Below, one piece after another: positions 9,168 through 50,696 of a stretch of 50,696 nt of DNA. Origin of the DNA: Trichoplax sp. H2 (Eukaryota); contig NOWV01000118.1 in the NCBI GenBank assembly GCA_003344405.1, positions 186,001 through 236,696 on the forward strand. Reading direction: 5' to 3'. Under the pieces are notes generated by a model, which searched no databases, was not told the DNA's origin, and worked only from the letters and a program-made list of their open reading frames with translations. Position 1 is the first letter of the stretch. Each line of letters starts with the position of its first letter. Position numbers and translations under genes: made by a program.

Positions 9168-9545
9168 ATTCAAGCCGGCAATACAAATGGACATATAACC
9201 TTAAAAAATCATATAGACTGATTTTACTTTTACTAAAAACATAACATGAAATACTTTGTGAGAATCAAGCCGGCAATGCAAGTGGATGTATAACCATAAT
9301 TAATTTTAAGGTTGATTTTACTTTACTGAAGATATAACATGAAAAACTTAATGAGGATCAAGTCAACAATGTAAATGGACCCCAACCTCAATTAAACCTA
9401 TAGATTGTTTTTACTCTGCTAAAAGTATAACCTTAAAATACTTTTGAGAATCAAGCCAGCAGTGTAAATGAACGTATAAACTTGATTCATCCTATAGATT
9501 GATTTTGCTTTACTAAATGTATATCGTAAAAATGCTTTATGAGAA
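9168..9545. repeat. Tandem repeat, about 93 bp x4
   Basis: TCAAG(C/T)C.(G/A)CA.T..AA.TG(G/A)A...GATTTTAC units at about 9170, 9264, 9358 and 9450. Confidence 0.85.
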
Positions 9546-29930: not shown

Positions 29931-30120
29931 TAGGTTCAGCAGATTGGATAGCTTTTTTTACTTTGAGCCTTCTGAATTATTATGAGTTTTATTCAGCTAG
30001 ATTTACGTGATTGAATAAAATTTTTAGTTTTGAGCTTTAATAAATATTATAAGTTTTATTCAGCTAGGGTTAGGAGATTGGATAAATTCTTTTTAAGCCT
30101 TATTAAATATTATAAGCTTA
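29931..30120. repeat. Tandem repeat, about 66 bp x3
   Basis: GATTG(G/A)ATA...GAGC...AGTTTTATTCAGCTAG recurs. Confidence 0.7.
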
Positions 30121-32713
30121 TTCTCATAAAGTCCGCTATAATATCGCCACTTCGCCAGACTAATTTGTAAGCAAGCATAAATTAAGCTTCGTTATGTAAA
30201 TAGATCGTGGCAGAAAATAATCGTGATATATTGATATGGTCTGGTGTACACAATAGCAGACCGAGAATGGGGTCAGAAGTATGTCCCAATGTGAAAACCG
30301 ATGAGTAAAACATTGTCATCCGATCATGACCATATTATGTTTGTAATACTTCAAAATGATAGACATGCAAAATTCACTTATATTAACAAATACATGGGAA
30401 GTATAAATTTTAAATAATTACCCAGTACCTAGCCTGCAGTTATAAATTGCCACAACGAATAGAATCATGCACGAGGTGAAAAGCTTGTAAGGGGTCAGAA
30501 ATGTTTCAGTCTATCAATGGTGGTCATTATTAGCCTATGCTAATGGAAAACAAAGCGTAAGAAAAATCAATACTAAACAGACCTAACAATTTGTAATAAC
30601 ATTGTGGTAAAAGAATTAACCTCACTAGATAAGTAACAGATTCAATGTATAGGAAAACAATATCCGCCGCGATGCTTATACAAAAGAGAGCAGGCAGCCG
30701 CTAGCTATTATGTTGTATAAACGATAATATAATAATATGGATAATAAAGAGAAAGTACAATCTACTCAATGTAAAAAAAGCCCGTCTAAAATCGTAACCG
30801 ATATTCTCAACGCATGAAATTTATCCTAAAAGGCCGTATAAAATTATGATTATCTTGGAATAGAAAGGAGATATGTCGAAAAACAGTACACTAAGTATAC
30901 TTATTCCTATAGTATAATCGTATGCAACTGAGTACATAGAACTAATAACATTCGATAATTGCACCAAATTTTATAATTGCTGTAGACTGCCATGATGTTT
31001 CACGGTATTTGTATATTAGCTGAAAGCACTCGTAACTGAGTCGCTTTATAATTATACTGTTTTATTTGTATGAGACAAAGAAATACGGGCGTCTATAGCT
31101 ATCGCTACTGAAGAGCTTAATAACTAGAGTATACCGATAATTACTATTAGTGTACAGTTTGAGGTGCCTGAATTCCAATAGAAACTCACAACCACACTAA
31201 AGAATTCTTAATGTTAGTTCAAAAAATTTCTTACTTTGATAAAATCTCATATTGGAAACATCAGTCATTTATCTAAAACTGATCGGCCATAAGCAATTGT
31301 AGCCTACCTATTAACTTCTAATACCGCCAATAATTATATTATTCAGAACAGGAAGTATAACAGACAAAAGTGCCTACCACACGCTGTTTATAGAATAATG
31401 TATAACTACTACATTCGCTTCTCAGTTATTTAAACTAAATTATTAACATATGCGCCTCATTTCTGTATATCACTGCAATCATTAAGAAGAGAGGGAGCTT
31501 AAAACTATCGAACGTTGGGCGATGTCTAATAGATTTTATCCACCATCGTCTTCAAACTAAAATAATCCTAAACGTAAAGTAATTAAAATATTACAGTTTT
31601 ATTCGTATAACTACTTTAGAAGAATTCAAATCAAATGATACACGTATTAATCGACTGCAATTTTTCTTTTTCTAGATGAAAATTACTACTTTAGAACAAG
31701 TGCTCTAAGAAATTGTAGCAAAGAATTATTTAAAGAGCAGGTTAGATCAATTTCTTAGTTTAATAAAATTCTCTAAATAGATTTATTTCAAGTCAGCAAA
31801 CGTATAAGCATGAATGTTCAACTAAACGCGTCGCTGTAATATTTGAGCTGCGCAATAATTTAAATCAAAAGTACATATCCAAATATTTCATTATGACACT
31901 ATAACCCTTTAGATTCGTTAGGCATAACAATTCACAAACGAAATTTAACTATTCTTTGGCCGATACAAAGCTATAAAAGACGAATTTACATAGCCCTAAC
32001 ATATCTAATAAGATAGATTATCCGGGAGTTAATACTGAGATTCAGTACAAAATTTGAAACCTTCTAAATTAGTTTAAACTTTTGCGAGTCAAAGTTAAAC
32101 ATTACCATATCCCATCCGTTGCAGTTTCACTTAATAATTAATATGTAAACCTATGAAGAGAATCCTACCTATCTCACTTAATAGATACAAGTATATATAT
32201 TCGTATATCATATCATCAAACTTAAATGAACGAAAGCACAACATACACCTACTAAATTAAGGCGTTAAAAACTCAAGTCTTTTCGGCACTGCTAAGACCA
32301 AGATTTTACTTTCTCGAGTATTACTACGTTGGTGATTTAAAAGACACAACATTAAAGTTGTTCTAAGTTCTTAGTTTAACCCATTAAAGATACTTATTGA
32401 TATCACTATATTTTTTTACACAAAAATAGAGGGGCAAAAGATCATCAGGACTTAATATTCTTTAGATTCTACTTAACAATAATGATGTTTAGTATTTGCT
32501 GTTAAAATGTCCTTCAAATATGAACACAATATGTGGAATTATCATGAATATGTAGAATTGAGTAGAATTATCATGATTATGTAGAATTGAGTAGCTATAA
32601 TACCGTACATCTTTTTTTGGTTTCAAGTTAGATCCAGAGATTAGCATGATTTTTTGATAGGCTAAGATTACTAGAAGTCCAATATAACGCGTACGACAAA
32701 GATATCCTTAAAT

Positions 32714-32945
32714 TGAATAATATTCTGAACAGGTAGTCAAGAATAAAATACCGTACCGACTTTGCGGAAATATAAACTTGAAAGTTAGGGAAACATCCTA
32801 TTTTCTCGATTTAAATTATTAGTCACATTTTATCTGAACAATATTCTGAATAGGTAGTCTAGAATAATACTTTCTTTGCGGAAATATAGACTTGAAAGTT
32901 AATAAATATCCTCTCTTCCATATTTTAAACTATTAGTCATTTTGT
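32714..32945. repeat. Tandem duplication, period about 121 bp
   Basis: AATATTCTGAA.AGGTAGTC.AGAATA...CTTTGCGGAAATATA.ACTTGAAAGTTA...TATTAGTCA at about 32719 and 32840. Confidence 0.8.
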
Positions 32946-34633
32946 CAGTCCTCCTTGATGTGTTAATGATAAAAGTAAAGTATTACAGATTTCTTTTCCA
33001 GCCTAAAAACTAAAAATTTTATTGAGAACGATGGTTTTGGCGCAATCAACGAAGCTGCCAGCTCTAAAATAAGTAATAAATGAGTATTAAGTAATAGTTC
33101 AAGGTGATGAGTACATTTCAGGCCTATTTGTCAATTGAATAAGCTCAAGTGAGATTCAATTTTTTGCAGCCTGATGTACCTTTCAAATTACTGCACTGAC
33201 ATAGACCAACTTTATAGTAGTATAAAGTGCCCAGAATACGACCAAGTAATTTAGTTATAATTTATCGAACCACTTAGATGACTAGCGTGTATAAAAAACT
33301 CCAGTCTCATAGCAACAGTAAATCAAATCAGGGAGCAAACTTGTTAATTATATCGCTTATGTAATCTAGCGTTTTACGTATAGTTAATAATTGCTACAAA
33401 GTAATTCAATAGGCTGATCATTCTCAACATCTCTGAATACTTACAAATTACAAAGAAATTATTCAAGCTGTGCAGCCATGCCTTTATACATTCATTGTAT
33501 CTGCAACATCAAAGTAAACAATAACAATCGTCACCTGGATCCATTTTAGCAGAGTTTTTGATTGATTCATCATCCATCTCGAAAGTTTACCGAAAAAGTT
33601 GTATCAGCAGGGGGATATCTTATTATTGAAATTAGTTTGTCTCATACTGAGGAAGGCTGTTTGAAAGATAATAAACTTACGTCAAGGATGGTTTAGTAAA
33701 CAAATTGTTTTGGTACCGAATAAGTTGCAAACTGGGTAATCACTTTTTAACACATAATTATTCGAAAATGGCGATATTCCATCAAATAAATAGTAAAAAG
33801 GTTCATATCCAAAGTTTATGTAGGACGTATCTGTAGCGGGATCTACATACTAAAAATTAAATAGCTATCTTTTTGGCATCTTTACGTTATATACAATAAA
33901 AAGAGTTAACATCATTTGGGATATTAATAAAAATACTAACCCCATTCCTAAAATTCTCTCTAACTCAAGTTGAAATCAGAATATTGAATCATGCAAATCT
34001 AGATATACAATATAAAATCTATTGACATTGAATGTACTGGCTCCATGATATTTCTCTATCATCCATGACGCCTAGAAATAGTTTTTCAGGATGTTATTTG
34101 CGAATCTAGAGTATAACGATGTGCCGGTATCGATGATAGCTTTGCAATTCAAAACTATGACATGTTTTGTGACTCCTCCCAATAAGTAATAGCAAAAATA
34201 ACATTAGGATAAATATAGACATCCACAAATACATCATTTATCGTGACAAAAACACCGTATTAATTGTAGCTCCAGAGTAATAATGATTGCAATCACCATA
34301 TGATAGTTAGCTACAGTAGTTAAAATAGTACTACACAATGAGTAAATGTAGTTTCCTGCTTACTGTATTAATGAAAACGTTAATTGCCGGTAGTAAGGTA
34401 GCTTGCTCCGACCACAAGTGATCTATTTCACTACTGTAAGTTGTAAATTTGTAAATTATAACAATCATAACTAGTAAATGTTACCTTTCACTAGAGTTAA
34501 TGAGTATAGATAGGATATTTGGCTCTAGCATTAGATCAATAGAGATCTTCCCAAAACATGGTCTATAACGTAATTAAAGTAACCAAAACAGCGAAATCTA
34601 TCAACATTTTTCAATAACGATCCATTTTCCTCT

Positions 34634-34647
34634 GTTACCTGGGCAAC
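34634..34647. promoter_or_regulatory. RFX X-box (GTTACC-TG-GGCAAC)
   Basis: Matches the X-box consensus GTNRCC(N0-3)RGYAAC, 250 bp upstream of the ATG at 34898. Confidence 0.6.
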
Positions 34648-34897
34648 TTGAATAAGTTTTTAATTTGTGTGCATAAAATATCCGGTAATTGAAATTTAAA
34701 GATTTTATATAGGTGCGGTAACTTATACGAAAATGGATCCTCCTTAATTATTTATTATTTTCTATAATTTGCTAATTGATTCAATTACAAACAGGATACA
34801 ATTGACCAAAAAATTTATCTCTGCGTAGGTTATTTCGTTGGTCGTCTTTGACTGATTAAAGATTATTATACGCGTAATTATTATAATTACGTAAAAT

Positions 34898-35860
34898 ATG
34901 GCCGATTTAACAGCAGCAGTATCTAGCTTGCCAGTGATCCATCATAAGCAACCTATGAAGGCTTCATCACCAACGCGATATGCAGCAAGTGGCAGAGAGC
35001 CAATCACTCTACGCAATTTAAGAAATAAACATTTACGCTACATGAACAGTGTCAAGAAGGAACAAAATCAGTTAGAGAAGGAAATCAGTAGAATTAAAAC
35101 GGTGTTAGATCCTCGAGATTATCGCCGAGCTTCTAAAGCAAGGCGAAGGCGTAACAACAGGAATCATTCCATTGCAAAAGCAAAATTAGGCCTTGATATG
35201 CTAAACGACAGCCGTTCAACTTCTGAATCTTCAAATTCATTACGCAAAAAGAGCTTACCTGTCATCAATGAACATCAAAGAAATGGACATTTGGCAAAGC
35301 AAACATCGGAAGAGCCCTGCCAACGTGTTAAGTATAACGAAATGGACAGAAATGATGAAGGTGAATGGTTTAATGCTACTCCCAAAAATACGTTTGATAT
35401 GATGTTACTGCAAAAGAAAAGAGATCAACGGCGTACAATTTATAAAATTTTATTAGAAGAATGCGACCTGCAAGAACAGGTGGATGATGTTCCGCGTCAC
35501 TTGCAACAGCAGGATCATGATCAAAATAAGAAATATAATACTAAAGGGCGTCGCAAAAAGGACAACTTAAAAGTTGAAATTGGTGAAGTCAGAGAATTAA
35601 TTGAGAAAAGACTAGCTATCCATGATCATTACCAAGAGAATCCCCTTGATGATTTAGCACTATTTTCAAAACCACACAACAAAGGCACTGTCAATAGTCC
35701 AATTGCAACGGATAGGAAAAACTTATCAAATCAATTTAATGGTAAAGACCTTCAAAAATCTTTACTAGATCAACTTAAAACTGAGAAATTAATTTCTTCG
35801 CAATTAAGTTCATGGCTTAGAGTTGTCAAAGGACCGAGAGCATCGAAAAAGATTTTTTAA
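34898..35860 (+). CDS. Uncharacterised 320-aa basic/charged protein with an N-terminal coiled coil; single coding exon; possibly ciliary
   Basis: Only long uninterrupted ORF in the window (963 nt, ATG in aaaatATGg context) in an AT-rich background where chance ORFs are <120 aa. Protein-like hydrophilic composition, with heptad-like LRNLRNKHLRYMNSVKKEQNQLEKEISRIK. Possible 5'UTR intron at about 34718-34794 (gtaact...aaacag). No family recognised with confidence. Confidence 0.8.
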   Translation: MADLTAAVSSLPVIHHKQPMKASSPTRYAASGREPITLRNLRNKHLRYMNSVKKEQNQLEKEISRIKTVLDPRDYRRASKARRRRNNRNHSIAKAKLGLDMLNDSRSTSESSNSLRKKSLPVINEHQRNGHLAKQTSEEPCQRVKYNEMDRNDEGEWFNATPKNTFDMMLLQKKRDQRRTIYKILLEECDLQEQVDDVPRHLQQQDHDQNKKYNTKGRRKKDNLKVEIGEVRELIEKRLAIHDHYQENPLDDLALFSKPHNKGTVNSPIATDRKNLSNQFNGKDLQKSLLDQLKTEKLISSQLSSWLRVVKGPRASKKIF

Positions 35861-36953
35861 TCAAAAAACAAATACCGGTATTGAAAATGGTCCTGACCCA
35901 TGAACAATATAAAACGAGTGGGCTTCTGCAAGCAAGAATAATCATAAGATCATATGGCAGCTATGGCAGAAGTTTATTCACTTTCACTATAACTTATGAC
36001 TGCACCATTTTTTTGCAGGACTATCGTGAACCAATTTTGGGAATAGAACATATAATCTACTCAGTATTGTACATTAGAAGAACGTATTTAATGTATAGTA
36101 AATAACTAGCTATTTTTACGTCTATTTCGCAATTTAATTTTCATTCTATCATTCATCGTCAAAATTTGCAAACCTATCTGAAATATTTAATGTATATCCA
36201 TTATTAATTTAATTTATCCTGCTTTTATTTTATGCTAATTTACATGCTATCATATATATTGGTCTTATAAGTCTCTGATTAGATTGGAGATTGGTGAATA
36301 CGGATGTATTATTTTGGGATCTTTAAGATACTTCATGCTACTGTACAATCCAGGCTAGAAAAAAATCTAAGGTCGAGTTCAAACTATAATGAGTCTATTT
36401 TAAATATTTGAAATAAGTGATTTGTAGCTGATAATGTATTTAATGCTAGCTTGAAAGATACACACAAATTATTGTAGCTCCGATTTAATTTTTATCTCCA
36501 TCTTGAAGTAATAAAGAATAATCCCATTTAAATTATCTCGCCTGAAAAGAGCGATCGAGATGGACTTGCATTATATTGTGAATATTAAACTTTAGTATAG
36601 ATTAGAAATACTCCAAAGTAATAATTTAGAGATTAAAGAAAGAAAATGTGCCTGTGCGGACAATGTCGAAGGTGCGTTATAAATCTGCGACTTACTTACG
36701 TAGTAATCAGTTCACTTACGTTAGAATTGGCATAGAGAATAGAGTTTGCTATGTATAAATTACTCATAGTAGTCAAAAGTTAGTGCATGGCGTGCAGCAA
36801 CATTGGGAATACACTTTCTAAGACTATTAAGCATCGCATCTATACGTTACTGATTCTAATTACTTTTATGGCCGTTCGTGTAGAGTTGTTTGTATAAAAA
36901 GGGGTGCAGATAATCGCAAGTCTTAAACTATAGCTAACAGTTGTACTATCTCA

Positions 36954-37185
36954 TAAAATAAACTTGATAATATAAATAAAACTAGAAGACTAACATTCTA
37001 TGCATCAAAATATGTTTGGAGATGACAAGGAGACAGAGAATAACAGTTATTGTCCGTAAAATAGGCTAATAAAATAAACTTGATAATATGAATAAAACTA
37101 GAAGACTAACATTCTATGCAACAAAATATGTTTGGAGACGACAAGGAGACAGAGAAAACAGTTCTTGTCCGTAAAATAGGCTAAT
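36954..37185. repeat. Near-perfect tandem duplication, about 116 bp x2
   Basis: AAAATAAACTTGATAATAT.AATAAAACTAGAAGACTAACATTCTATGCA.CAAAATATGTTTGGAGA.GACAAGGAGACAGAGA...TTGTCCGTAAAATAGGCTAAT occurs twice with only about 5 differences. Confidence 0.92.
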
Positions 37186-38322
37186 TTAATCTATTTCTGT
37201 AATCCATACACTCTCTTATGATGCATACCCAAACTTAGGATAAGATTCGTTAAGGAAGTTTTCGACCAATTTTTTTCTATATTGTCGTTTATCGCCCCTA
37301 ACATGGACTTTTAGAATTTGAAGATTCTAGAAGTCCGTGGCGCTGGTTATCATGCGTTTCGTTTGATATTGACAGTACAAAAAAATAAAGTGCTTTTGGC
37401 GAGAATCGCAAACGTATCTCGTCAAGCTGTCACTTACTGTTAATCAATTTATGTACATTGTACAAGAAAAACAAGAAGAAATACTATATCACTATTTGTT
37501 AGAATATTATCCTGATGTATAATAACTACTGTAGTTTGTCATCAGAAAAGAGAATTATTGTACAAACAAACTCAATTATAATATAAAATAAAATAATTGA
37601 CTACTGTAAGTAATGCAGGTCTAAGAATTTAATAAACTTCAATTTTATTTTCAGCTAGTCGTAATTCCATAAACTATGAATATGGTTGTAGGTAACAACG
37701 AAAATTTATTCGCTTTCTTTATTCCCTTCATCGGTGGTCCAAGATTGCATTGCTCATTTGTTTCCAGCATGATACATTGCAAAATAGCATAGTTTTTGTA
37801 GGAAGAGTTTGATATACAGTCTAATTAATTATTATCACTCAATCAAAAAATTTGTAGAATATCGAAATAATACATTTTACAACAAGAAAATAAAACTAGA
37901 ACCAATGCAGGGCTATAAATAATCATATCCAAGTTAAGAATGTCTAAAAAAAGACGGTACACTAGTACACATACACTGTTAGTGATCTGCATTTCAGAAA
38001 GGGAACATTCTATCCAATAAAACTGTGACGATAATTTACATTACGGTAAAGTACTATAATTTATTATTCAATTTTATTTTAGATTTCTAACATTTATATG
38101 CTTGATAGCAATAACGTTCTACTAACATTACAAAAGCGTTACAAGATATCAATAACTTTGTAACGTGAAACATTTTAAAAATATGACTATGCTGCATGAG
38201 ATAAATCATGAGCGATGTGCCTTATATTTTAGTGTCAAGCGATCATTAGTAGATCAACTTTAAAAGAAATACTATAATACAGAATTGAAGATACCAAGGA
38301 TTCAACCTTGGATCCTACGCGA

Positions 38323-39876
<1,554 letters not shown>

Positions 39877-40480
39877 TGAGTACTATTGCAAGTACAGCAG
39901 TAGCAGCTCGTGTTGAAATGGTCGCTACCAATAGATGAGTTTGCTGCAAGAGTAGTGACTTTGTCAAGTGGCCACTGACAGGGACTGATCGAGGAGGAAG
40001 AGGGGGCCAACTTGCAGTCCACCTACAGTCAAGTTGGAAAATCACCTTGACAAGTACAGTAAAGAATGAAACGACTATCGGATCGTCCAATGGAGCCAAT
40101 GGCGTTGTTCTACGAATTGGCTATGGATGATCGATCCCCTTGTCAATGTTTTCACTTTCTTCCACTCAATGATTGAGTGGAAACCCAATGAATAGGCAAG
40201 CTTTTGCAGGCAATTTTCCTTCTCCTTTCAGCATCCCGCGCGTCTTCTCTGCAGCACAATCATTGGTAATCGAGAGGTAAAACCAGTCCAATTCTTGGGC
40301 AGCGTCCTTCTGGCTTCTGTACCGTAGCATGGCGACTGGCTACAGTACTTACGGAACTGTACAGTACAGTACAGTACTGTACTTTCTTGCGGGCGGCACT
40401 TGTACAGTACAGTACTGTACGTTGTTAACCATTGCTTGCGCCGCAATCATTGGCAATCGATAGGTAAAACCAATCCAATT
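39877..40480 (-). promoter_or_regulatory. CENP-A 5'UTR/promoter with clustered CCAAT (NF-Y-type) boxes
   Basis: CCAAT/ATTGG at 40087, 40096, 40116, 40185, 40262, 40449 and 40470; E2F-like ATCCCGCG near 40233; locally raised GC content. Confidence 0.45.
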
Positions 40481-40945
40481 CTTGGGCAGCGTCCTTCTGG
40501 CTTCTGTACCGTAGCATGGCGACTGGCTACAGTACTGTACTTAAGGAACTGTACAGTACATGTACTGTACTTTCTTGGGGGGCGGTACTGTACTATACAG
40601 TAGTACTGTACAGTACAATGTACTGTAATGGAGACTGTACTCATCTACTGTACACTGTACTGTACAGTACAGTACAGCATACAGTACTAGAGGCTCTCAT
40701 ACAGTACAGGGCTTCTGTACCGTATCATGGCGAGTGTCTACAGTACATTACGGAACTGTACAATACTTTCTTCTGGTCGGTACTACAGTATAATGTACTG
40801 TACTGTAGCGTAAACTGTACAGTACTCATCTACAGTACAGTACACTAGAGACTCTCATACTGTACTGTAGAGGGTCTCTAATGAACACGATAGCTACAGT
40901 ACATACAGTACTGTACAGTATGTTGTTAACCGTTACTTGCACCAA
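40257..40945. repeat. Degenerate tandem repeat (about 187-210-bp units, about 3 copies) in the CENP-A/MVB12 divergent promoter
   Basis: The block CAATCATTGG...GTAAAACCA...TTCTTGGGCAGCGTCCTTCTGGCTTCTGTACCGTAGCATGGCGACTGGCTACAGTACT occurs at 40257 and 40444 (period 187). A third partial copy GGCTTCTGTACCGTATCATGGCGAG starts at about 40710. GTTGTTAACC occurs at 40421 and 40922. Confidence 0.85.
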
Positions 40946-41490
40946 AAGCCGATTCAAATGATGCTGATATCCAACTATCCAAATGATCAAAAGTGATTCA
41001 TTTTCTCATCAGTCTACAGTAGTGTACGATGTATCGTGTATTACTATCTAGAGTCAATACTAACTACTGTATTGAAAGTTCGTACTACTCTCAATTAGCA
41101 TCAATATAGCGTAGCGTACTATAGAATACTATGGACTACTGTAGGGGATTCTACCGTATGCTAGGTACTGCACTAGAGACGCTATGATCATTTGGTAATG
41201 ACAGATGAGGGGAAAATTTCATCGTTTGGGAGGGACTTCAACCTTATACTGTACTGTACTGTACTGTATATTGATTTCTTGATAGAACCGAAAATGAACC
41301 GAATCGTTGGCAGGTCTAGACAGTAGCAAAGTACAGTGTACAGTACCTTAAATACTGTACCGTACAGTACACAGACACTTGATGCCTACCGGAAGTACTG
41401 TACTGTACAGTACATACTGTACTCTTTCTTATGACTGAACAGCGAACACGTCTACAGTACGTACTGTACTGTACTGTACACTGTACATGA
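40316..41490. repeat. TA(CAG/CTG/CCG)TA-saturated tract (candidate transposon footprint array) 1
   Basis: Dozens of chained, mixed-orientation pentamers, e.g. TAcagTAcagTAcagTActgTA (40360-40381), TActgTActgTActgTActgTA (about 41247-41268) and TActgTAccgTAcagTA (41353-41369). Confidence 0.85.
41388..41396 (+). promoter_or_regulatory. ETS/GABP-type site ACCGGAAGT upstream of MVB12
   Basis: Perfect ETS consensus 283 bp upstream of the MVB12 ATG. This motif is typical of bidirectional housekeeping promoters. Confidence 0.5.
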
Positions 41491-41670
41491 GTCGTTATTG
41501 CTGTTCGACTGTTATTGACTAGATACGATTTGATGCTACACAACGTTACTGCTAATCCTCCTTAGTCTCCGATGCTGGACTAAATCGTTTCTCTTCAACG
41601 ATTCCAACATTCAATCGATGGTCATCATCTTTTGCCATTGATAGCCCTTACTGTAATTTATCCATTAAGG

Positions 41671-44600
41671 ATGTCCAGTAACGATTATTATACTGCCATT
41701 TCTGATATTGGAATTACTTCAAGACCGGATGAAGTTCCCCAAGGATATATTTTAGTAAGCAAATAACTTGTACTCCAATACTAACAAAATATCCAGTCTC
41801 GCGATACTCTTACCATCAACATAAAATAGACAGTAATCCATAGCTTGTCCAGTCATTCATTCATTATGCTATAACTGTATATAATCATATGGATTTGAAG
41901 GACTAAAAGAATCGTCACCATAATGATCGAGACATGGTATGATTGAATCCATTTTACCAATCAATACACACCATACGCAATACATGACTGCCTGCCAAAG
42001 TGGCGCACCAGAACGACTACCGCACATAGAGAATAATCACTTTCAATAGCCTATTAGTGTATTGATCGTCTTCAATCATTGATATCTCAATAGATAGATT
42101 GGCCTTAATCCTTCTCGTTGATATGTTTCTCTTTCATTTTGCCATCCACATTATCTATTTTGATTTTAATCAGTGGTAGTATAACGCTGATCATTCCATA
42201 TGGGTCTGTCATTTCGGCCAACGTTATGTGACTCTTACCATGCCACCGATTACGTCATAGCTTCGACGAAGATCATAACGCTCAATGGACTATCAAGGAC
42301 TGCTCTTCTATTTTGCAGTAGTTCTTGTAATTATCCTACGACTAAGTAGGAATGAACTACAGCCAATGAGCACGGAATGTGTGAGCTTCTCTCCATTTGC
42401 GCCCATTTTGTGATATTCATACTGAATCGCTCATAGTAACGATGAGAAGATGGCATACTCATTGCCCATTTCTTTGCTTGCATACTTTTACTACAGTGTA
42501 CTGTACGTACGCTCCGACTTCACGTCGGACTGTATGTCCAAAGACCAGATGAATTTCGCCTCGATCGTTTAAAATATCAATTCTACTATCTCTATTTTAG
42601 GTTTCTCGCTCTGTGTCTGGCATCGATGCTCAGCTATGGCCTGGAAAGCGATCTGATAAAGCGAAGCGATATCTCTGCGTCAAGCCGCTACAGGTAATAA
42701 CTTATCGTCTACTCATGTTTATCACCAGTAGAACGGATCGTCATCACATTGACACCACAATATTTACTAAAATGAATAATAAAACGGTAGAAAGGGATCC
42801 AAAATAATAAAACGAAAATTAAAATACATTCAGCCAATACTGTTACTTAGGATATGTTGATGTAATAGTGTAAAATTGAATCGTCGCTGTCTTCAATTTG
42901 AATATTGCACTGCCGAATATTAAAACAATAAGGTCGGCCTATTGAGTACGCTAATTTGATACCAAATATAGGGTAGATCAGTCAATCCCGTTGTAGGAAC
43001 GGGCATAATGCCATAAATCCTTGACTTGGTCAGTCTTAGCTTGTATACCATTGTTGCGTCCACTATGATATCGACAGGAACTGCTTCCAACTACTGTTAA
43101 ACGCCGATACCGGTCTCCACTAGATTCAAGTCTACTGTACAAACGTCTTTGTTGTAATAAGTATCTCGCTTTTGTATCTTTTATCTATATCGCATACATG
43201 AAATTGAATACTAATCAATAATATGAACCATCATTTATACTTCAAAATTTAGATTTAAATATAAACGATAGCTAATATTATAACCGTCTACTTTACTTTA
43301 AAATACCTTAGAGCACGTATAACAACGCGAGATTAATCACGATCAGAACACCATACGATCTTTCAGCTCTCTTATAAATTAGATATCCAACTAATTCATC
43401 TTCGCAATAACTTATCTGTTTCTGTTTACACGTATATCTAGAAAAGCGATAAAGTAGTGGTAGAAGACATTGTTATACTGAAAGAGACGAAGGCTACTCC
43501 ACGTGGTTATACCTATAGGGATACAACTCTCAACGACGGTTAGTTAGTCTCACATTTCAATCAGGATTAATTGATCAATAATAGTGGTTCTATCGGCATC
43601 TCTTTATGAAACCATAGATCTGCTAATCAAAGCAGAATCCTTTACCTTGTCTAACTGCTAGAGCAAGTGAAATGTCTATTTTGATCACATGCAGGTATTG
43701 CGGCATTACGGAAACAGAAAATTTGTGTCAAATATATATCCTCAAGTAACGCTCAATCGGCCCTATGTAGTATTATTTTAGTTAATAGAGCAAAATCGGA
43801 ATACGCTCCCCCAAAACACGAGTATACTGAAAAGTAAGTCAATTAATTAATATAATCATTATAGAACAGCAAGGATTCGACTATAATTAATTATAATTAT
43901 CTTTTGAACTCTTGATACCATATAATATCGAATAATTGTTAATATCTAGTTATTTGATACAGTCATCTACGGAGTACTTCAATTTAGTTATCCAAATTTG
44001 TGTGCTAGACTACAGAAAATTAAAATTTTATTTGCTTTTACCAAAGCTTTTCGTCAATTTAGTATTATTATCGTATGCGATAAATATGCCACAGCTATAC
44101 TCATTCTTATAATGCAAACATCCCACTTAAACTTTCTCTCTGACCCTCATCAAATATTTCCTAACCCAAAGCGATATCAATGGATTCCATATATGCTTTG
44201 ACAAAGTTAATATGAGCCGATGTTTTCAACAATCTCAACCACCTCAGCCAGTTTTACAACAACAACCTGGGCAACATCAGCAAGTGCAACATCAGCAAGT
44301 ACAGTATCAGCCAGTGCAACATCAGCCAATGCAAAATCAACCACTAGTTATCGAGTAAGTCAACTTTTCTATGTTCATCCTGATATCCTATTTCGATTAT
44401 TTAAATGTGCTACATTCAATACAACGTCATGGTAATATAATGGTATACAAGATAATAGCACAATATTTATGAATTTCATACTAACTATAAATCACGCGTG
44501 CTTTTTACTTTACGCTGATATTTGCATCGATAGGCAACCCTTACAATCTCTTACGATAGCATCATCCGCTACGCAGCCGCCGCAATCCCACAATCCTATT

Positions 44601-45124
44601 CAACGTACTGACAGTCGTAAGTTATAATATGTACAAGGACGAAGTAATTTTCTTTAATCTAATTCAAATAAACACAAACTAGATCAGCTAGTACTAAATT
44701 CAAATAATCATTTCAATCTGAATGAATATTCCTTATGTAATCTCAGGTGATCTACAACATAGCGCCAGTGGTGACCTCGATGGAGTCCCTTTGCTAGTTA
44801 GTCCTTCATTCGATATTCGAAAGATTGGAGATGTAAGTGGGCTGTACTAAAATTATTGCATCTACAAGTATTGGTGCTACTTTTCGTAATTCGATATTCT
44901 AAACTTTTGTGAAGTGAAATGCTGAAAATTGATTACTTTACCCCTGAAATTGTAGATTCCAGATAATATTTACCAAAGCCCTTATCTAATAGATGAAAAG
45001 GTAATACTAAAATTTATATCGCCGTATCATAAAGTCACCTATCTAACCTTATTTATTCACTCATGTTTATTAGTATCAGCATGATTTCGCGTTAGAAAAT
45101 GACGTGGTTGCAAGAATTAAGTAA
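41671..45124 (+). CDS. MVB12: Multivesicular body subunit 12 (ESCRT-I; MABP + UMA domains), 286 aa, 9 coding exons
   Basis: Exons 41671-41754, 42601-42693, 43442-43538, 43695-43833, 44172-44354, 44534-44616, 44747-44832, 44956-45000, 45074-45124; all GT-AG with consistent phases (861 nt). MABP-like motifs: AISDIGITSRPDEVPQGYILVSRSVSGIDAQLW...RYLCVK, VEDIVILKETKATPRGY, LRKQKICVKY and DINGFHICF. C-terminal UMA-like motif: LDGVPLLVSPSF...IDEKYQHDFALENDVVARIK. Confidence 0.88.
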
Positions 45125-45616
45125 TCAACATTCCCTTTGTGAGATACTTTAAATATCGACATCCTAATTCCTATTATGTATATAAAGCAATCGGATAAAA
45201 ACGAAGTAAATACGAACGTATAAACGTAATGCGCCGGTTTATATCCATCCACTTCGATGGAATGCTACTCAGCCGAAGGTTGGGAGTACACGAAATACTA
45301 TCATTTGGCAATTTAATGGGTAATAGTGTCTTGTAGAGATGATGCTTCTGCGATTAATGGAGCTTGTCACATACCGTGAATACTAAAAGTTGGTTTTGAC
45401 ACGCTAATTGTTACAATTTTATGATTTTGATAAGTTAGATTTTACAGTTATTGCACTTAATCTCCTTAAGTTAGGTTCAATGTTGTTAATGCTAGAGTAA
45501 CTTTTTCCTATGTTGCGGTGGGATTAAACTGCATTGCCTGCTACAATTGTAATTCTATGACCGTTCTAGACTTATATTACTGCGTGACTATTTTCAATTA
45601 TGGTTTTGCATTTATG

Positions 45617-45639
45617 TATATATATATATATATATATAT
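45617..45639. repeat. (TA)n microsatellite
   Basis: About 11 perfect TA units in the convergent 3' intergenic region between MVB12 and PMPCA. Confidence 0.9.
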
Positions 45640-46085
45640 GAAATCCTTAAGGAATTGATTATACATCCATTTACTTGCCAAATCTTTACGGAAAGAATTG
45701 CCAAAATGTTATTTGGTTACTACTAGACATGAAGCAACACTTTAATCCTTCCGGCAATGTGTGGCATTTTTAATATTGTATTATTACTAATCATACGAAT
45801 ATTATCAAGACTCTCTAAATATGTAAATTTTTACTAATAAATAATAACATCAACGTGATTGCAATATCTTTTGAGATATCTGCGCTTTAGCCATCAAAAT
45901 TTTATTAAAGGTCGCAATGATTAATAGTAGTTTTAAATTCCAAAAGAATTTTGATAATCTGAACAAAGTTTACAATTGCGGTATAAATATAATATGCGAA
46001 AATTTAAAATCAGTCCTTATAGTCAAGCCCTTTAAAGCAGATTAACATACAAAATAGTGAAGTAAAAATTTAATATCATAACAAT

Positions 46086-49083
46086 TTAGGAATAGAAAGA
46101 AAATCTACTTTGTGATTTAATCCGACCATTGTTCGTCATAGCTTCTTGCATTTGCTCATGAGATGGAAAATGCTTTAGATTTCCGTAAGCGGCAACGGAT
46201 AATTTCGAACTTAGTATCCTATCTACAACGCGTATTAAGCTTTCTTCCGTAACTTGCTCTGTATTGAGAGATAGAACAACGCTTAGTCATAATAACTTGG
46301 ATGGTATCCATTAGCAAAGCCTTAAATAGTGTACCTATGTTATCGCATAATTCTTGAACTGAGGTATAAGCAGGTAGAGATAAGGTTTGCCTAGAGATTA
46401 AATTGAATTATACGTACAGTTGACCACGATGTAAAATAGTGTAGCTTATGTCTATCCATTGAATTTTACTAACCGACATAAATCTTCTAGCATAATCTGT
46501 TTCGATTCTAAATTCATTAATAGTACAGACTGAAGTTGCCTTTTAGCACGAGAGACTTCGTCCTAAAGCAAATATCGAAATTATAATATTGCAAATATAA
46601 AGCAATCAGTTATTATAGAATAAACATAGGATAACATCCTTTTATTATCGTAACATCAGAAATAACGGAACAGTTCACGCCATACCTTATGAAATCCATT
46701 TTTCATATTACAAATTGTGGTCATGACCACTTCAGCAAGCTGCCCCATCTAAACGTCAAGGAATCACTAGCGTTATGACAACTTCAAAATGTTCATACGT
46801 GTACGTAAACGTTAATTTGCCACCACAATAACAATACTATTATTATAAGCTAGTTTAGATTTATAATATAAAATACCTGTTCAGGAGGAGCACTTGCATT
46901 TATTACAAATAAGCCACTATCAACGTAACAATGTTGTAAGCAAAGGCAAGAAAACATCCAGTAATAGTTACATAGAACAGATCTATAAATTCTAGAATAC
47001 ATTCCTTTTCCAGGACCACCAGCTGAGAAAGATCCGCCACCTCCCATCAATAAGCTCAAAACTGCTAAACTAAAGAAATCGGGATCCATATATGAAACAC
47101 CTTCTAAAGCAAAAGCTGCATGGGACAATTCAGACACCATTGCTGCAGTCATGGTCGGACCTGCAGGGGCCTTTGGTAGGTCCATCTTCAATTACAAGCA
47201 TACCGGATATTTACAGATGGAAGCGCAATGCGCAAGAATCTGCTATTACTGTTACTTACAATTACATTCGATCCTATATATTCCGTCTCATCCTCCACCA
47301 GTGATGTTGATGTTGATGACTTAAACCAACTAGGTACATCGCTTACGAAATATTTTTCAGCTAATTCCACAAGTTCTTGATGGTTAACGCCGACCCCACC
47401 AATAACTAGTCGTTTCGGTGTGTAGAGCAGTTCATGATAACGTTGTAACGACGATGTATCGATCTCGGGAAAGGTTTCCATATCAGCAAATTTCGAAAAT
47501 CCAACACTCTTTTCTCCGTAAGCTGCCTAAACGTATAACAACACAAAACATTAGTGCACTTTTTCCTTATCAGTCGGTGTCAGTAGCTTTATTACAGTAT
47601 TTATCTACCCCATGTATTAGTTCAGTTAAAATAATTTCTGCATCCGCCATCATTTTAATGTGTTCTAATTCTGCATTTAGGGCCGCTTTTTGGTTTTCTA
47701 CCTAGAAAAATGACAACACACATGATATCGGATTTACCAACGAGTAATAATATTCCTTTCTAAAAAGTACAATTACCACGACTGCATTACAAGTATAATG
47801 TGAGTGAATTAATATGCAGATAAGATTATCATTTACATTTCTCTGTGAAAGGTCAGGAAATAAAATAGAATCGGCTAAGGCTGCAAACATATCTGGTATT
47901 CCGTGGCGAAAGCCAGAGATAGAATAAATGGCACAATCTCTAAATGAGTGTAGCAAACTAGTCATTAGAATTTCAAGCATTGAATGCAATTACTAGAATA
48001 ATACGCGTATAACTAAAGCTAATCAATAAAATTGTACTGTCATTAAAGATTGCAGTTTAAATAAGCAAATTAGACATTCTGATTTAAAATAGAGCGCAAG
48101 GCAGACAACAATAACACATTTAGCTAAATGCATAGCGTATAATCTTGATATTTTGCCTTTTCTTTAGCAGTATTTTGCACTATAATTACTTGTAATAAAA
48201 GTCACGTTTCAAGTATTGCTCACAGGAAATATAATATTTATTCTTTTAGGAAAGAACATTTTGTATGTCGTTGGTCGTATAGTGTACGACATGTTGAACA
48301 ATACACACTGTCCCTTCGTTTAGCATTCTGAGTAGCATTCAAATTTGATGAGACTTTTACTTAGTAGTTACCTATTCATTTCACATTGTACATTCACACC
48401 ATAGGAATCTAGTTTATCGATGAAATCTTCTTTATTCTCAAACTTTCGTGAACCCTATTTCATTATTTAGTAATTTGAACAATTATTCATTAGAAAAAAG
48501 TGAAGTATCTACAATTCATTTATAAACGCTGAAAAGATGATTCTTGTCAATGCCATGGTTACTGCTATAGAAGCCATGATCGATGATGAAAACACAAGTG
48601 CAATCAGCAACTTGCCTTCTCTCTACGCGTATTATTTACAAATAGCATCCATACCTGGAAACATATCTTTCCCATCAAGTGAGAAATGCCTTTAGGGAAA
48701 GCTAATTCATAGCGTGATCCAGCGTCCACTATCGCTACATTTTAAAAAAGAAGACGTGCGCATACCTTAGACAAAGCTATGAGCATCGTTGTCAACTTTG
48801 TTCTACATGCCATGAGCATACTATAAGCATCCCTACCTCCAATATAGCCAACTTGTCCATAACATGGTGCAGTAATGACCTTAATGCCATTGGATAATTG
48901 TGTTAACTGTGGATTCTGAGTACTATTCTCGATAGTAGGAGCATATTTAGGAGTAGCTATATTAGGCAAAGGTTGCGATAAAGGTATCTGTTGATACGAT
49001 GAGCAATAATAACGTGATAGCTGGTGGATATATCGACCAGATGAAATTTGCCGAGGAGACTGGAGAAGTCGTTGCCATGCCAT
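46086..49083 (-). CDS. PMPCA: Mitochondrial-processing peptidase subunit alpha (peptidase M16), about 520 aa, 11 coding exons
   Basis: Exons (minus strand) 49083-48837, 48734-48655, 48454-48372, 47939-47837, 47701-47609, 47526-47260, 47185-46877, 46748-46686, 46562-46474, 46390-46335, 46258-46086; GT-AG with consistent phases (1563 nt). Arg/Ser-rich transit peptide, TQLSNGIKV, DAGSRYE, the alpha-specific glycine loop LMGGGGSFSAGGPGKGMYSR, and RAKRQLQSVLLMNLES. Confidence 0.95.
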
Positions 49084-49290
49084 AGCTGAATCTTGTGTGT
49101 AGCGTTAAGCTGCAGACAGCCTGAAGTAGCCTGAAGTACTGTACAGTAAGCACACGTGTGAATTTCCTATCGACTGTACTGTACTGTATTGCATCGGAGT
49201 CCAGTGTCAGTCCGAACTGGGACTGATGTATGAAGTGCCGAGTTCATTGTCTACAGTATAGTGCACTGTTATATACAGTGCAATGTACGG

Positions 49291-49382
49291 TACGGTACTG
49301 CCATTGCCAAAAATTGGGACTCTTTTCGCTTCGATCTCTCCTCTGCTACGGTACTGCCATTGCCAAAAATTGGACTCTTTTC
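49291..49382. repeat. Direct duplication of about 36 bp, period 56 bp
   Basis: TACGGTACTGCCATTGCCAAAAATTGG(G)ACTCTTTTC at 49291 and 49347. Confidence 0.85.
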
Positions 49383-49462
49383 AGTTAGACTAGTGCAAAC
49401 TCCCGTCGCTTTGCTGACGGTTTACGATAATGTGCTCATTTAACAGATAGTATTACCATTTG

Positions 49463-49923
49463 TCGTAGACCTGTCAGAGGTTCAGTAACTTTATACCGTG
49501 TACTGTGTAGTAGTAGAGTGTATGACATACAGTATACTGATATACTGTACATACCGCATTTCTCTAATCTTACAGTAACTCTCCATTTTTAGCTACTGTA
49601 TGTGGAACACTCTTACCCATTCATTCATACTGTATAATATACAGTATATACTGTATACTGGATATATATGAGTGCAAGCTCCTGTCGCTTTACTGACGGT
49701 TTACGATAATGTGCTCATTTAACAGAGGTTCAGTAACTTTATACCGTACCGTGTACTGTCTGCTGTACTGTACAAATGCACGGTACAGCACTACTGTACA
49801 GTACAATACTGTACAGTACAGTACTTTTACTACAGTACTCATATTGTAGTAGAACCGAACCGACGAACCACAGTTCACGTCGACATAAATCGGTTTGGAA
49901 TCGAACCTCTGACAGGTCTACGG
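49463..49923. mobile_element. Non-autonomous TIR DNA element (MITE-like), 461 bp, 7-bp TSD
   Basis: Perfect 20-bp inverted repeat CGTAGACCTGTCAGAGGTTC (49464-49483) / GAACCTCTGACAGGTCTACG (49903-49922) plus one mismatched terminal base. Flanked by direct CCATTTG (49456-49462 and 49924-49930). Subterminal AACCG repeats at about 49853-49862. No ORF. Confidence 0.65.
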
Positions 49924-49967
49924 CCATTTGATAATGTACCCATTTCTTATACTACAGCACGGTAGAG

Positions 49968-50382
49968 TAGAGTACAGTACTGTACTATACCAGGCCAATC
50001 AATGTACTGTACTGTCATGGAGCAAAATAGATGTCAAAAGTAGAGGCAGCCTTGGACAGTGTACCAAACAAATTTTGCATGCCTTTGGACGACATCTATT
50101 TTATACTGTACATCTTGTAGTATTGTACCCAGTGTCTACAGTATGTCACAGTCAATGTACTGTAAGTACTGTACAGTACAGTATAACTAGAAGTACTGTA
50201 GAGTACAGTACTGTACCAGGCCAATCAATGTACTGTACAGTACTGTACAGTACTGTACTGTCATGGAGTAAAATACTGTAGATGTCAAAAGTAGAGGTAG
50301 CCTTGGACAGTGTACCAAACAAGTTTTGCAAGCCTTTGGACGACATCTATTTTACACATCTTGTAGTATTGTACCCAGTGTC
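49968..50382. repeat. Tandem duplication (about 170-185 bp alignable, period about 230-245 bp)
   Basis: CCAGGCCAATCAATGTAC...GATGTCAAAAGTAGAGG(C/T)AGCCTTGGACAGTGTACCAAACAA...GCCTTTGGACGACATCTATTTT...CATCTTGTAGTATTGTACCCAGTGTC occurs at about 49990-50136 and 50216-50382. Confidence 0.9.
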
Positions 50383-50696
50383 CAGATGAATCATCGTCAA
50401 TTCGTCATTATCAATCAATGCTAAAGGCGATGACAATATTTTTGCACAATAATCTACCGTAGCATTATACCTGTTCAATATGATGACAGTACTGTACAGT
50501 ACTTTGCAAGCTTACAGAGCAGTCTAAATCCTCACTACTAAGTACTGTTGTACTGGGCCGGACTTGCGCAGGACCCACTCCAAGCCTTCATTGATTACAC
50601 GATCCTCGATAAAGAAAGCTCCCGATGATCATGTTTAATAAATAAATAATAATACTACTTTTACTTTAAAAATCGCATTTCCTTCAAAACTCTATC

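Follow-up and report, generated by a model that had tools for sequence, protein, structure and literature searches.

Arrays of the palindrome TAC(A/T)GTA upstream of Trichoplax genes as a possible promoter or architectural element

The analysed window is a stretch of 50,696 nucleotides (50.7 kb) from Trichoplax sp. H2 (assembly GCA_003344405.1, contig NOWV01000118.1, positions 186,001 to 236,696 of the forward strand). It contains two tracts that are dense in the heptamer TAC(A/T)GTA, hereafter TACWGTA with W for A or T, which we call array 1 and array 2. The features of the locus are as follows, with the evidence in brackets.

39786–40256, minus strand: 5' exon region of a histone H3-family gene, abutting array 1 (RNA-run contig)
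40257–40420, plus strand: local tandem duplicate, copy A (self-BLAST, 87% identity over 173 columns to copy B)
40316–41490, unstranded: array 1, an intergenic TAC(A/T)GTA-dense tract with (GTACW)n chains of two to five GTAC (motif counts)
40444–40611, plus strand: local tandem duplicate, copy B, with an extra GTACT relative to copies A and C (self-BLAST, alignment)
40710–40878, plus strand: copy C, third, partial and more diverged (self-BLAST 68–91% identity, alignment)
41584–41754, plus strand: initial coding exon of the plus-strand neighbour, with a GT..AG splice donor at its end (RNA joint, ORF)
46089–49104, minus strand: exons of the MPP-alpha gene (Pfam, ORFs, similarity)
49110–50510, unstranded: array 2, an array of the same heptamer upstream of the minus-strand MPP-alpha gene (20 GTACWGTAC 9-mers, 39 heptamers)
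49464–49922, unstranded: MITE-like element within array 2, bounded by perfect terminal inverted repeats of 20 nt and flanked by 9-bp sequences that match at 7/9 positions (repeat search)
49966–50136 and 50192–50382, plus strand: two tandem copies in array 2, with one 20-bp indel and two indels of 5 bp between them, each located at a heptamer (self-BLAST, alignment)
50270–50286, plus strand: one 5-bp unit at a lone TA, polarised as a gain (comparison with unit-less copies)

The minus-strand gene next to array 1 is assigned to the histone H3 family by Pfam Histone matches on its downstream exons (39300–39545 and 38575–38739), and the plus-strand neighbour is spliced at the RNA joints 41754>42601, 42691>43440 and 43537>43694. 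The original prediction had described the first tract as a promoter that fades at the flanking genes, and the RNA data bear out the fading and a promoter or intergenic position, since array 1 is bracketed by the end of the RNA contig 39786–40256 on one side and by the exon 1 donor at 41754, with the splice joints that start there, on the other, which places it between two divergent, head-to-head genes. Array 2, 8 kb from array 1, takes up the sequence upstream of the MPP-alpha gene; an exon of this gene is 98% identical to Trichoplax adhaerens. Both arrays of the window (2/2) occupy a gene-upstream position, an association with gene starts that rests on n = 2, and a third gene start at 34.9 kb (RNA contig 34827–35581) is without an array. 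The genes beside the arrays, i.e., the H3-family gene and MPP-alpha, are taken to be housekeeping genes. Searches of the window for tRNAs and for Rfam families returned none.

The whole window holds 130 perfect heptamers (64 TACAGTA and 66 TACTGTA), 93 of which lie within the 2.9 kb of the two arrays; in the region 40250–41600, 54 of them cover 336 of 1351 bases. All 51 copies of the 9-mer GTAC[AT]GTAC are found at 40359–42498 (31 copies, with the 30 of array 1 at 40359–41471) and at 49136–50494 (20 copies), and bases 1–40000 contain none. The heptamers often overlap in a 5-bp register as (GTACW)n chains, in which GTAC cores alternate with A or T, and the longest chain in the window has six GTAC cores. 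Around the 116 ACWGT cores of both arrays, position -3 is T in 103 and position +3 is A in 100; one base further out, -4 is G in 73 and +4 is C in 79. The core of the unit is the symmetric (G)TACWGTA(C), which we count in favour of a promoter element. Of 55 chain spacers, 51 are A or T, many more than the A+T content of 0.58 in the arrays would give, indicating that the spacer is not drifting freely. Only the motif chains are common to arrays 1 and 2 in self-BLAST.

The mixed orientation of the units is the property that sets these chains apart. The original prediction had parsed the tract as TA-(CAG/CTG)-TA chains of mixed orientation and had argued that slippage alone would produce single-orientation runs, and we could substantiate both statements. 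Heptamer pairs exactly 5 bp apart have the same W in 13 of 21 cases in array 1 and in 3 of 14 in array 2, i.e., 16/35 in total, which looks random. As a control we used (GTACW)n arrays from metagenomes at at least 114 loci, where, among the matches listed, 1269 of 1331 adjacent pairs (95%) had the same orientation and 62 were mixed. The window chains with 9 same and 13 mixed pairs differ strongly from these listed matches (Fisher p 5e-12), thus ordinary slippage is no explanation for the random orientation.

A neutral compound microsatellite could nevertheless be imagined, in which (GTACA)n slippage in nucleosome-free DNA was followed by the scrambling of orientation through A/T changes in the spacer or through template switching at the GTAC palindrome. 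The 5-bp period and the letters of the window are also those of ordinary (GTACA)n pentanucleotide microsatellites, whose occurrence at the at least 114 loci shows that such repeats are common elsewhere. However, the metagenome arrays run to as many as 42 GTAC cores and are 95% of one orientation among the matches listed, whereas the chains of the window have at most six GTAC cores in random orientation. Slippage is expected to be weak in short chains, and 21 of the 33 chains in array 1 are single units. The spacer composition (51/55 against 0.58) likewise speaks against such an origin, and the restriction of the motif to two gene-upstream tracts in 50 kb would demand an extra cause. We therefore regard the microsatellite as an unlikely explanation, although the comparison of local duplicates lends it some points, as follows.

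The original prediction had stated that copies of the local repeat differ by whole 5-bp units. All three examples cited for it are present in the sequence, within the local tandem duplication of copies A to C, but the one at 40526 versus 40339 does not help against slippage, because its extra 5 bp are a perfect tandem duplication, the GTACT having been copied from the adjacent unit. This gain counts for the microsatellite, as does the 20-bp indel in array 2, which corresponds to two 10-bp periods. The gain at 50270–50286 is of another kind and counts against it. The unit is missing from the homologous 12-mer 50024–50035 and from the perfect inverted copies 50091–50102 and 50342–50353, so that a 12-nt inverted-repeat partner polarises the event: 5 bp were gained at a lone TA, with no tandem duplication and no copying of neighbouring bases. 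Yet an identical 9-mer 76 bp upstream is a possible template for it. This is the one polarised gain (n = 1); a second case near 50100 and the remaining indels are unpolarised. With 5-bp units being gained and lost and with local duplications of 190–280 bp, copy number would turn over fast.

If the units were maintained as binding sites, their bases could be expected to be conserved above their neighbours. Between the local duplicates this was not the case: in four comparisons, a small sample, the heptamer columns had 4/42, 6/43, 4/23 and 4/29 mismatches, and the other columns of the matching comparisons 13/120, 11/119, 9/147 and 9/141, a result that counts against a promoter element and is in line with a neutral microsatellite. 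The arrays contain 54 one-mismatch variants beside the 93 perfect heptamers, and the mismatches are distributed about evenly along the motif, a pattern that resembles the neutral decay of initially perfect units and not a graded binding preference. Outside the arrays, 37 isolated heptamers were found versus 18.0 expected, the first rank among 64 W-centred palindromic heptamers, and they show no GTAC extension. Both the uniform decay and this excess of unextended isolated heptamers count against the arrays being promoter elements and agree with units that arise as scars, the isolated heptamers being twice as frequent as expected and having ordinary flanks.

Such scars were at the centre of the original prediction, according to which a CAG-ended, TA-targeting element of the Tc1/mariner type went repeatedly into and out of open promoter chromatin. 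Every excision would add CWG-TA and with it one new TA target, and the arrays would be a mutational scar, possibly co-opted later. The canonical Sleeping Beauty footprint is TACAGTA or TACTGTA, i.e., 5 bp added at a TA (PMC6943129), and the unit of the arrays matches it letter for letter over all 7 bp, with one such gain observed in the window at 50270–50286. The balance of central bases (64 A versus 66 T) and the random match of neighbours also suit a scar origin. A self-amplifying urn model of TA targets, which has no free parameter and adds one TA with each event, predicts 36.1 ± 2.9 chains for array 1, where we count 33; a model with fixed targets predicts 42.5 ± 2.4. In addition, removal of units from the chain at about 41247–41268 leaves a short TA run, and the test for such runs gave a weak signal: array 1 has one run (P 0.0065 in comparison with random deletions), array 2 shows no excess.

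Other observations do not fit the excision of such an element. For array 2 the urn model predicts less clustering than we observe (25 chains versus 30.2 ± 2.3 predicted). Were the units plain footprints, the bases just outside them should reflect the former target. This holds only for the isolated heptamers outside the arrays, with C in 10/72. In the arrays, C is the outer base at 59 of the 116 free sides, and at 39 of 84 when sides with a decayed neighbour are set aside, above the background of 0.21, so that the unit looks GTAC-bounded and not simply TA-bounded, and an additional preference for GTAC targets would have to be assumed. No CAG-ended, TA-flanked inverted-repeat pair was found outside the arrays in the 50.7-kb window, and none of the 83 ORFs compared there with Pfam contains a transposase domain. 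Contigs at the array edges run into heterogeneous sequence with no common transposon end. The lone polarised gain has its possible template upstream, and the number of fixed events needed would be very large, by our estimate of the order of 100,000 in promoters. Such arrays are not known to us from any genome in which Tc1 elements are active. The Sleeping Beauty footprints known are single scars at former insertion sites, whereas the window presents 93 units in 2.9 kb, flanks that favour GTAC, and no element. The literature surveyed contained no report of Tc1/mariner elements in placozoans, and that on footprints and microsatellites no description of footprint arrays; nothing relevant emerged on a GTAC promoter motif in Trichoplax; matches to the raw motif strings comprised only miR-101 and primer noise, and the available text of Eitel 2018 contains no repeat catalogue. 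Hence, the proposed footprint array keeps its unit letters, mixed orientation, chain sizes and one gain at a lone TA, and is weakened by the lack of a CAG-ended element or transposase in the window and by the GTAC-bounded flanks. Taken together, we consider recursive excision scars improbable as the source of the arrays.

The motif is not confined to this locus. In three DNA runs, the depth over both arrays was about 20–370 times that of the flanks, and the excess was limited to the array bins (in run X1, for example, 9218 and 24028 versus about 65). The number of contigs on a 20-kb stretch reached 4801, 4741 and 4186 in the three runs. At the array edges (40316, 49362 and 50499) the Logan contigs are interrupted, and thousands of paralogous contigs match the arrays. 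The agreement of the consensus of their loose ends is only 0.36–0.47, meaning that the flanks of the other copies are unrelated. The excess depth and the contigs running into unrelated sequence together indicate that the motif recurs at thousands of loci. The original prediction had named a dispersed satellite or transposable element family as an outcome that would speak against it. The motif is indeed dispersed genome-wide, but its flanks are unrelated, which corresponds to that outcome only by half.

We also considered that the arrays could derive, as remnants or as nested copies, from a non-autonomous DNA element with motif-bearing inverted repeats and a preference for insertion into promoters. 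The 459-bp element at 49464–49922 with its perfect 20-nt inverted repeats and its 7/9 similar flanks supports this, and target duplications of the Mutator superfamily are 9–11 bp long. In addition, a 56-bp segment at 49392–49447 is repeated at 49671–49726 with 95% identity (self-BLAST), and in each DNA run the match of about 27–36 contigs begins at 49389. However, the inverted repeats of this only clear-ended element are without TACWGTA, the two arrays share nothing but motif chains, the loose ends at the chain borders have no consensus (0.36–0.47), and none of the 83 ORFs scanned in the window has a transposase domain. Inverted pairs of chains mimic terminal inverted repeats, and all 31 of the 31 pairs found lie inside the arrays. 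As EDTA classifies elements by structure, it could list palindromic chains in inverted pairs as terminal-inverted-repeat elements even if they are no transposons. This may bear on the available text of Kim et al. 2025 (PMC12221973), which reports, from EDTA annotation, "Mutator" elements in GP1 promoters whose inverted repeats carry the loop-anchor motif, and which is itself evidence for an element of this kind. Weighing both sides, we doubt that the arrays descend from such an element.

With array 1 as an example, a promoter or architectural element would take the form of an approximately 1.2-kb common upstream region of two head-to-head genes that consists largely of TAC(A/T)GTA palindromes. 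In placozoans, which are among the earliest-branching animals, such homotypic clusters of sites for a dimeric sequence-specific factor would mark housekeeping promoters in a lineage-specific manner. The GAGA elements and the DRE of Drosophila are likewise short motifs repeated in promoters of broadly expressed genes. By analogy with them, the arrays could provide an architectural or pioneer factor with a platform, although they differ in motif and lineage and are palindromic, in a 5-bp register and of mixed orientation. No protein is known to bind TACWGTA arrays, which counts against a promoter element. SBP-domain factors, which bind a GTAC core in plants and algae, were considered as the reader and dropped, because as far as we know they are absent from animals.

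Our leading interpretation, to which we give slightly less than an even chance, is that the arrays are a promoter or architectural binding-site array and probably correspond to the loop-anchor motif of Kim et al. 2025 (PMC12221973). In its favour we count the bracketed position of array 1, the presumed housekeeping neighbours, the recurrence with unrelated flanks, the symmetric motif with C beyond the unit and an A/T centre, the motif chains as the one sequence common to both arrays, and the inverted chain pairs. The available text of that study describes a motif enriched at loop anchors and at GP1 housekeeping promoters in four placozoan species, present in about 3000 placozoan GP1 promoters. 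Its likeness to the window lies in the lineage, the housekeeping-type promoters, the thousands of loci, the inverted-repeat structures and the occurrence in several placozoan species. The letters of the published motif appear only in a figure and are absent from the available text and supplements, so that its identity with TACWGTA is our inference and a weak point of this interpretation. The words "GTAC", "Tc1", "mariner", "palindrom", "microsatellite" and "tandem repeat" do not occur in that available text, which also describes neither a register of 5 bp nor a random centre (A or T) nor a match to a footprint. What our data show is the location, the anatomy of the motif, its recurrence across the genome, an orientation that differs from slippage and whole-unit differences between copies; protein binding as well as promoter and loop function are inferred. 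An origin of the sites from transposon excision scars is compatible with a promoter-element role.

According to the available text of Kim et al. 2025 (PMC12221973), about one third of placozoan genes lie in promoter hubs linked to a motif whose origin and reader have yet to be established. The array sequence could serve as a probe for finding the binding protein, and the arrays give reason to re-examine the "Mutator" annotation. They also permit a population-genetic test of whether excision scars can build regulatory DNA. A scar origin, if true, would be a new route by which mobile elements make cis-regulatory sequence, leaving no element body behind. In its most far-reaching form, which we put forward as a long shot, housekeeping promoters were written by a CAG-ended Tc1/pogo-type element cycling in the open chromatin of the largely clonal placozoans, the self-amplifying scars were adopted as the anchor platform of promoter hubs, and the "Mutator" label is a structural misreading. 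The window would provide a base-by-base view of a hub promoter, with overlapping TAC(A/T)GTA units in a 5-bp register, random orientation and gain and loss of whole units, unlike microsatellites of the same letters. As a minor observation, the central base of the units shows a marginal gradient across array 1, with A19:T11 in the left part versus A5:T13 in the right part (p 0.036).

Array 1, the heptamer-dense tract at 40316-41490, is a GC-richer island (0.44 vs ~0.30) whose TAC(A/T)GTA content is confirmed to lie far beyond chance, and the parse, the coordinates and the three copy-pair examples of the original prediction were all correct on re-reading the sequence. TACAGTA and TACTGTA occur 64 and 66 times in the whole window. 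The GTAC(A/T)GTAC 9-mer is found 51 times in the window, with 31 occurrences at 40359-42498, 20 at 49136-50494 and none in the first 40 kb. Perfect heptamers number 54 in 40250-41600, covering 25% of the bases, and 39 in array 2 (49110-50510). Of the 116 ACWGT cores of both arrays, 103 have T at -3 and 100 have A at +3, while G at -4 and C at +4 are found in 73 and 79, which defines a symmetric element (G)TACWGTA(C). The units frequently overlap at a spacing of 5 bp to form (GTACW)n chains with 2-6 GTAC cores, and the spacer centre is A or T in 51/55 cases, so that the centre is either constrained or was born so.

The arrays lie beside the following genes.
Left of array 1, minus strand: histone H3-family gene, Pfam Histone on two exons, its 5' part spanned by an RNA-run contig reaching 40256
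Right of array 1, plus strand: gene whose exon 1 ends at 41754, GT..AG joints 41754>42601, 42691>43440 and 43537>43694
46853-47191, minus strand: MPP-alpha exon, with array 2 upstream of the gene

The MPP-alpha exon shares 98% identity with Trichoplax adhaerens TRIADDRAFT_21554 (next best <=60%), thus the window is placozoan. With the minus-strand histone gene on its left and the plus-strand gene on its right, array 1 is the upstream region common to a head-to-head pair. A weak, marginal orientation gradient was seen in 40250-41600 (A:T-centred 19:11 left, 5:13 right; p 0.036), by which each flanking gene would meet the same orientation nearest to itself. The plus-strand gene weakly matches MVB12 (DUF2464, E 0.0015, below the cut-off), and its Q/P/V-rich open frame contains a 15-bp tandem repeat of 4.6 copies (44271-44339). 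No heptamer array lies upstream of the gene start at 34.9 kb, where a 321-codon open frame (34895-35857, plus strand) is accompanied by an RNA contig (34827-35581) and matches no Pfam family.

Contigs of three DNA runs, carrying two organism labels, and of one RNA run were aligned to 30700-50696. The runs gave 4801, 4741 and 4186 aligned DNA contigs, of which only ~8 per run represent the locus itself. In one of them the depth was ~65 in the flanks vs 9218, 1322 and 2358 in bins of array 1 and 24028 and 7805 in those of array 2, short-read contigs break at the arrays, and contigs matching the array edges run on into sequences that agree poorly with one another (consensus agreement 0.36-0.47). 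This indicates that motif chains recur at thousands of loci with unrelated flanks; the chains are also the only sequence common to arrays 1 and 2. Outside the arrays (1-40249, 41601-49049) the heptamer occurs 37 times vs 18.0 expected, which places it at the top of the 64 W-centred palindromic heptamers and third among 4298 heptamers, and the enrichment thus reaches beyond promoters. These isolated copies show no GTAC extension.

Kim et al. 2025 (PMC12221973) describe a set of ~3000 T. adhaerens housekeeping genes, 'GP1', whose promoters form loops and hubs and are enriched in a motif that orthologous promoters in other placozoans share. The letters of the motif are absent from the article text and three supplement files, but it is probably TACWGTA, since a de novo search on promoters resembling the two in this window could hardly yield another. 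The most likely function, which we propose tentatively, is a lineage-specific promoter or architectural array of putative binding sites, although the motif bases are no better conserved than the rest when local duplicates are compared, which weakens this reading.

Simple slippage is disfavoured as the origin of the units. The premise that it gives single-orientation runs was borne out in a comparison set of at least 114 loci, obtained by scanning contigs from metagenomes for five-core GTAC chains: in the 114 loci listed, 1269 pairs of neighbouring units have the same orientation and 62 have opposite ones. The same count in the window gave 9 vs 13 (Fisher p 5e-12 against the loci listed), and heptamers spaced 5 bp apart have a common orientation in 16/35 pairs. 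The arrays hence differ from slippage microsatellites, and their origin as a scrambled neutral microsatellite appears improbable, even though one difference between duplicates would suit it. Both arrays contain local tandem duplicates, and in array 1 copy B (40444-40611) exceeds copies A (40257-40420) and C (40710-40878) by a perfect tandem copy of GTACT, which fits slippage as well as transposon footprints. Mixed-orientation GTACW chains were also seen in two metagenome contigs, L084 (1-813), where they are embedded in a ~85-bp higher-order repeat, and L074 (830-970); mixed arrays are thus rare elsewhere, yet not unique to placozoans.

The original prediction derived array 1 from nested Tc1/mariner excisions, each leaving one unit, and the heptamers are indeed identical to the canonical Sleeping Beauty footprints TACAGTA and TACTGTA given in PMC6943129. 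If any TA can be hit and every hit creates one further TA (an urn model), array 1 should have 36.1 +/- 2.9 chains and array 2 should have 30.2 +/- 2.3, nearer to the observed 33 and 25 than the values of a fixed-target model (42.5 and 33.8). The heptamer excess outside the arrays and the even spread of mismatches among 54 one-mismatch variants (vs 93 perfect heptamers) point the same way. The claim that copies differ by whole units also held in array 2, where a pair of copies is distinguished by one 20-bp indel and two of 5 bp, each located at a heptamer. One of the 5-bp indels can be polarised: a 12-mer at 50024-50035 recurs, perfectly inverted, at 50091-50102 and 50342-50353, and in the duplicate at 50270-50286 five inserted bases change a lone TA into TA-CTG-TA; the unit is absent in 3/4 arms, so the difference is a gain. 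It does not copy adjacent bases, but an identical 9-mer 76 bp upstream makes templated copying possible. Against footprints, the transposon is missing: outside the arrays the 50.7-kb window lacks any inverted-repeat pair with CAG ends, none of the 83 ORFs scanned has a transposase domain, and no report of Tc1/mariner in placozoans was found in the papers searched. Moreover, C lies just outside the unit on 59/116 free sides, and on 39/84 without a decayed neighbour, vs a background of 0.21, so the unit looks GTAC-bounded. By our own estimate an enormous number of fixed events would be needed, and we regard this origin as unlikely.

Derivation of the arrays from transposon sequence itself is likewise doubtful. 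Kim et al. also place the motif in inverted repeats of EDTA-annotated 'Mutator' elements (PMC12221973). All 31 pairs of inverted heptamer chains from our scan lie inside the arrays, and a structure-based annotation could label inverted heptamer chains as such repeats. One element of array 2 stands out.
49464-49922: MITE-like element with perfect 20-nt terminal inverted repeats and 9-bp flanks matching at 7/9

It contains heptamer chains while its ends are without heptamer, and is presumably Mutator-like. A non-heptamer segment of ~56-85 bp forms a direct repeat (49389-49509 and 49671-49755, 95% over 56 bp); matching starts exactly at 49389 in ~27-36 contigs per DNA run, so the segment at 49389-49509 is a member of a dispersed family with a moderate number of copies.

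The ~34 kb at 1-34800 (27-33% GC) have no ORF of >=100 codons and no Pfam match above threshold among 68 ORFs. Tandem repeats occur there at 9170-9545 (93-bp unit, 4 copies) and at 29955-30123 (67-bp unit). A (TA)13 microsatellite at 45604-45646 interrupts the contigs in each of the three DNA runs.
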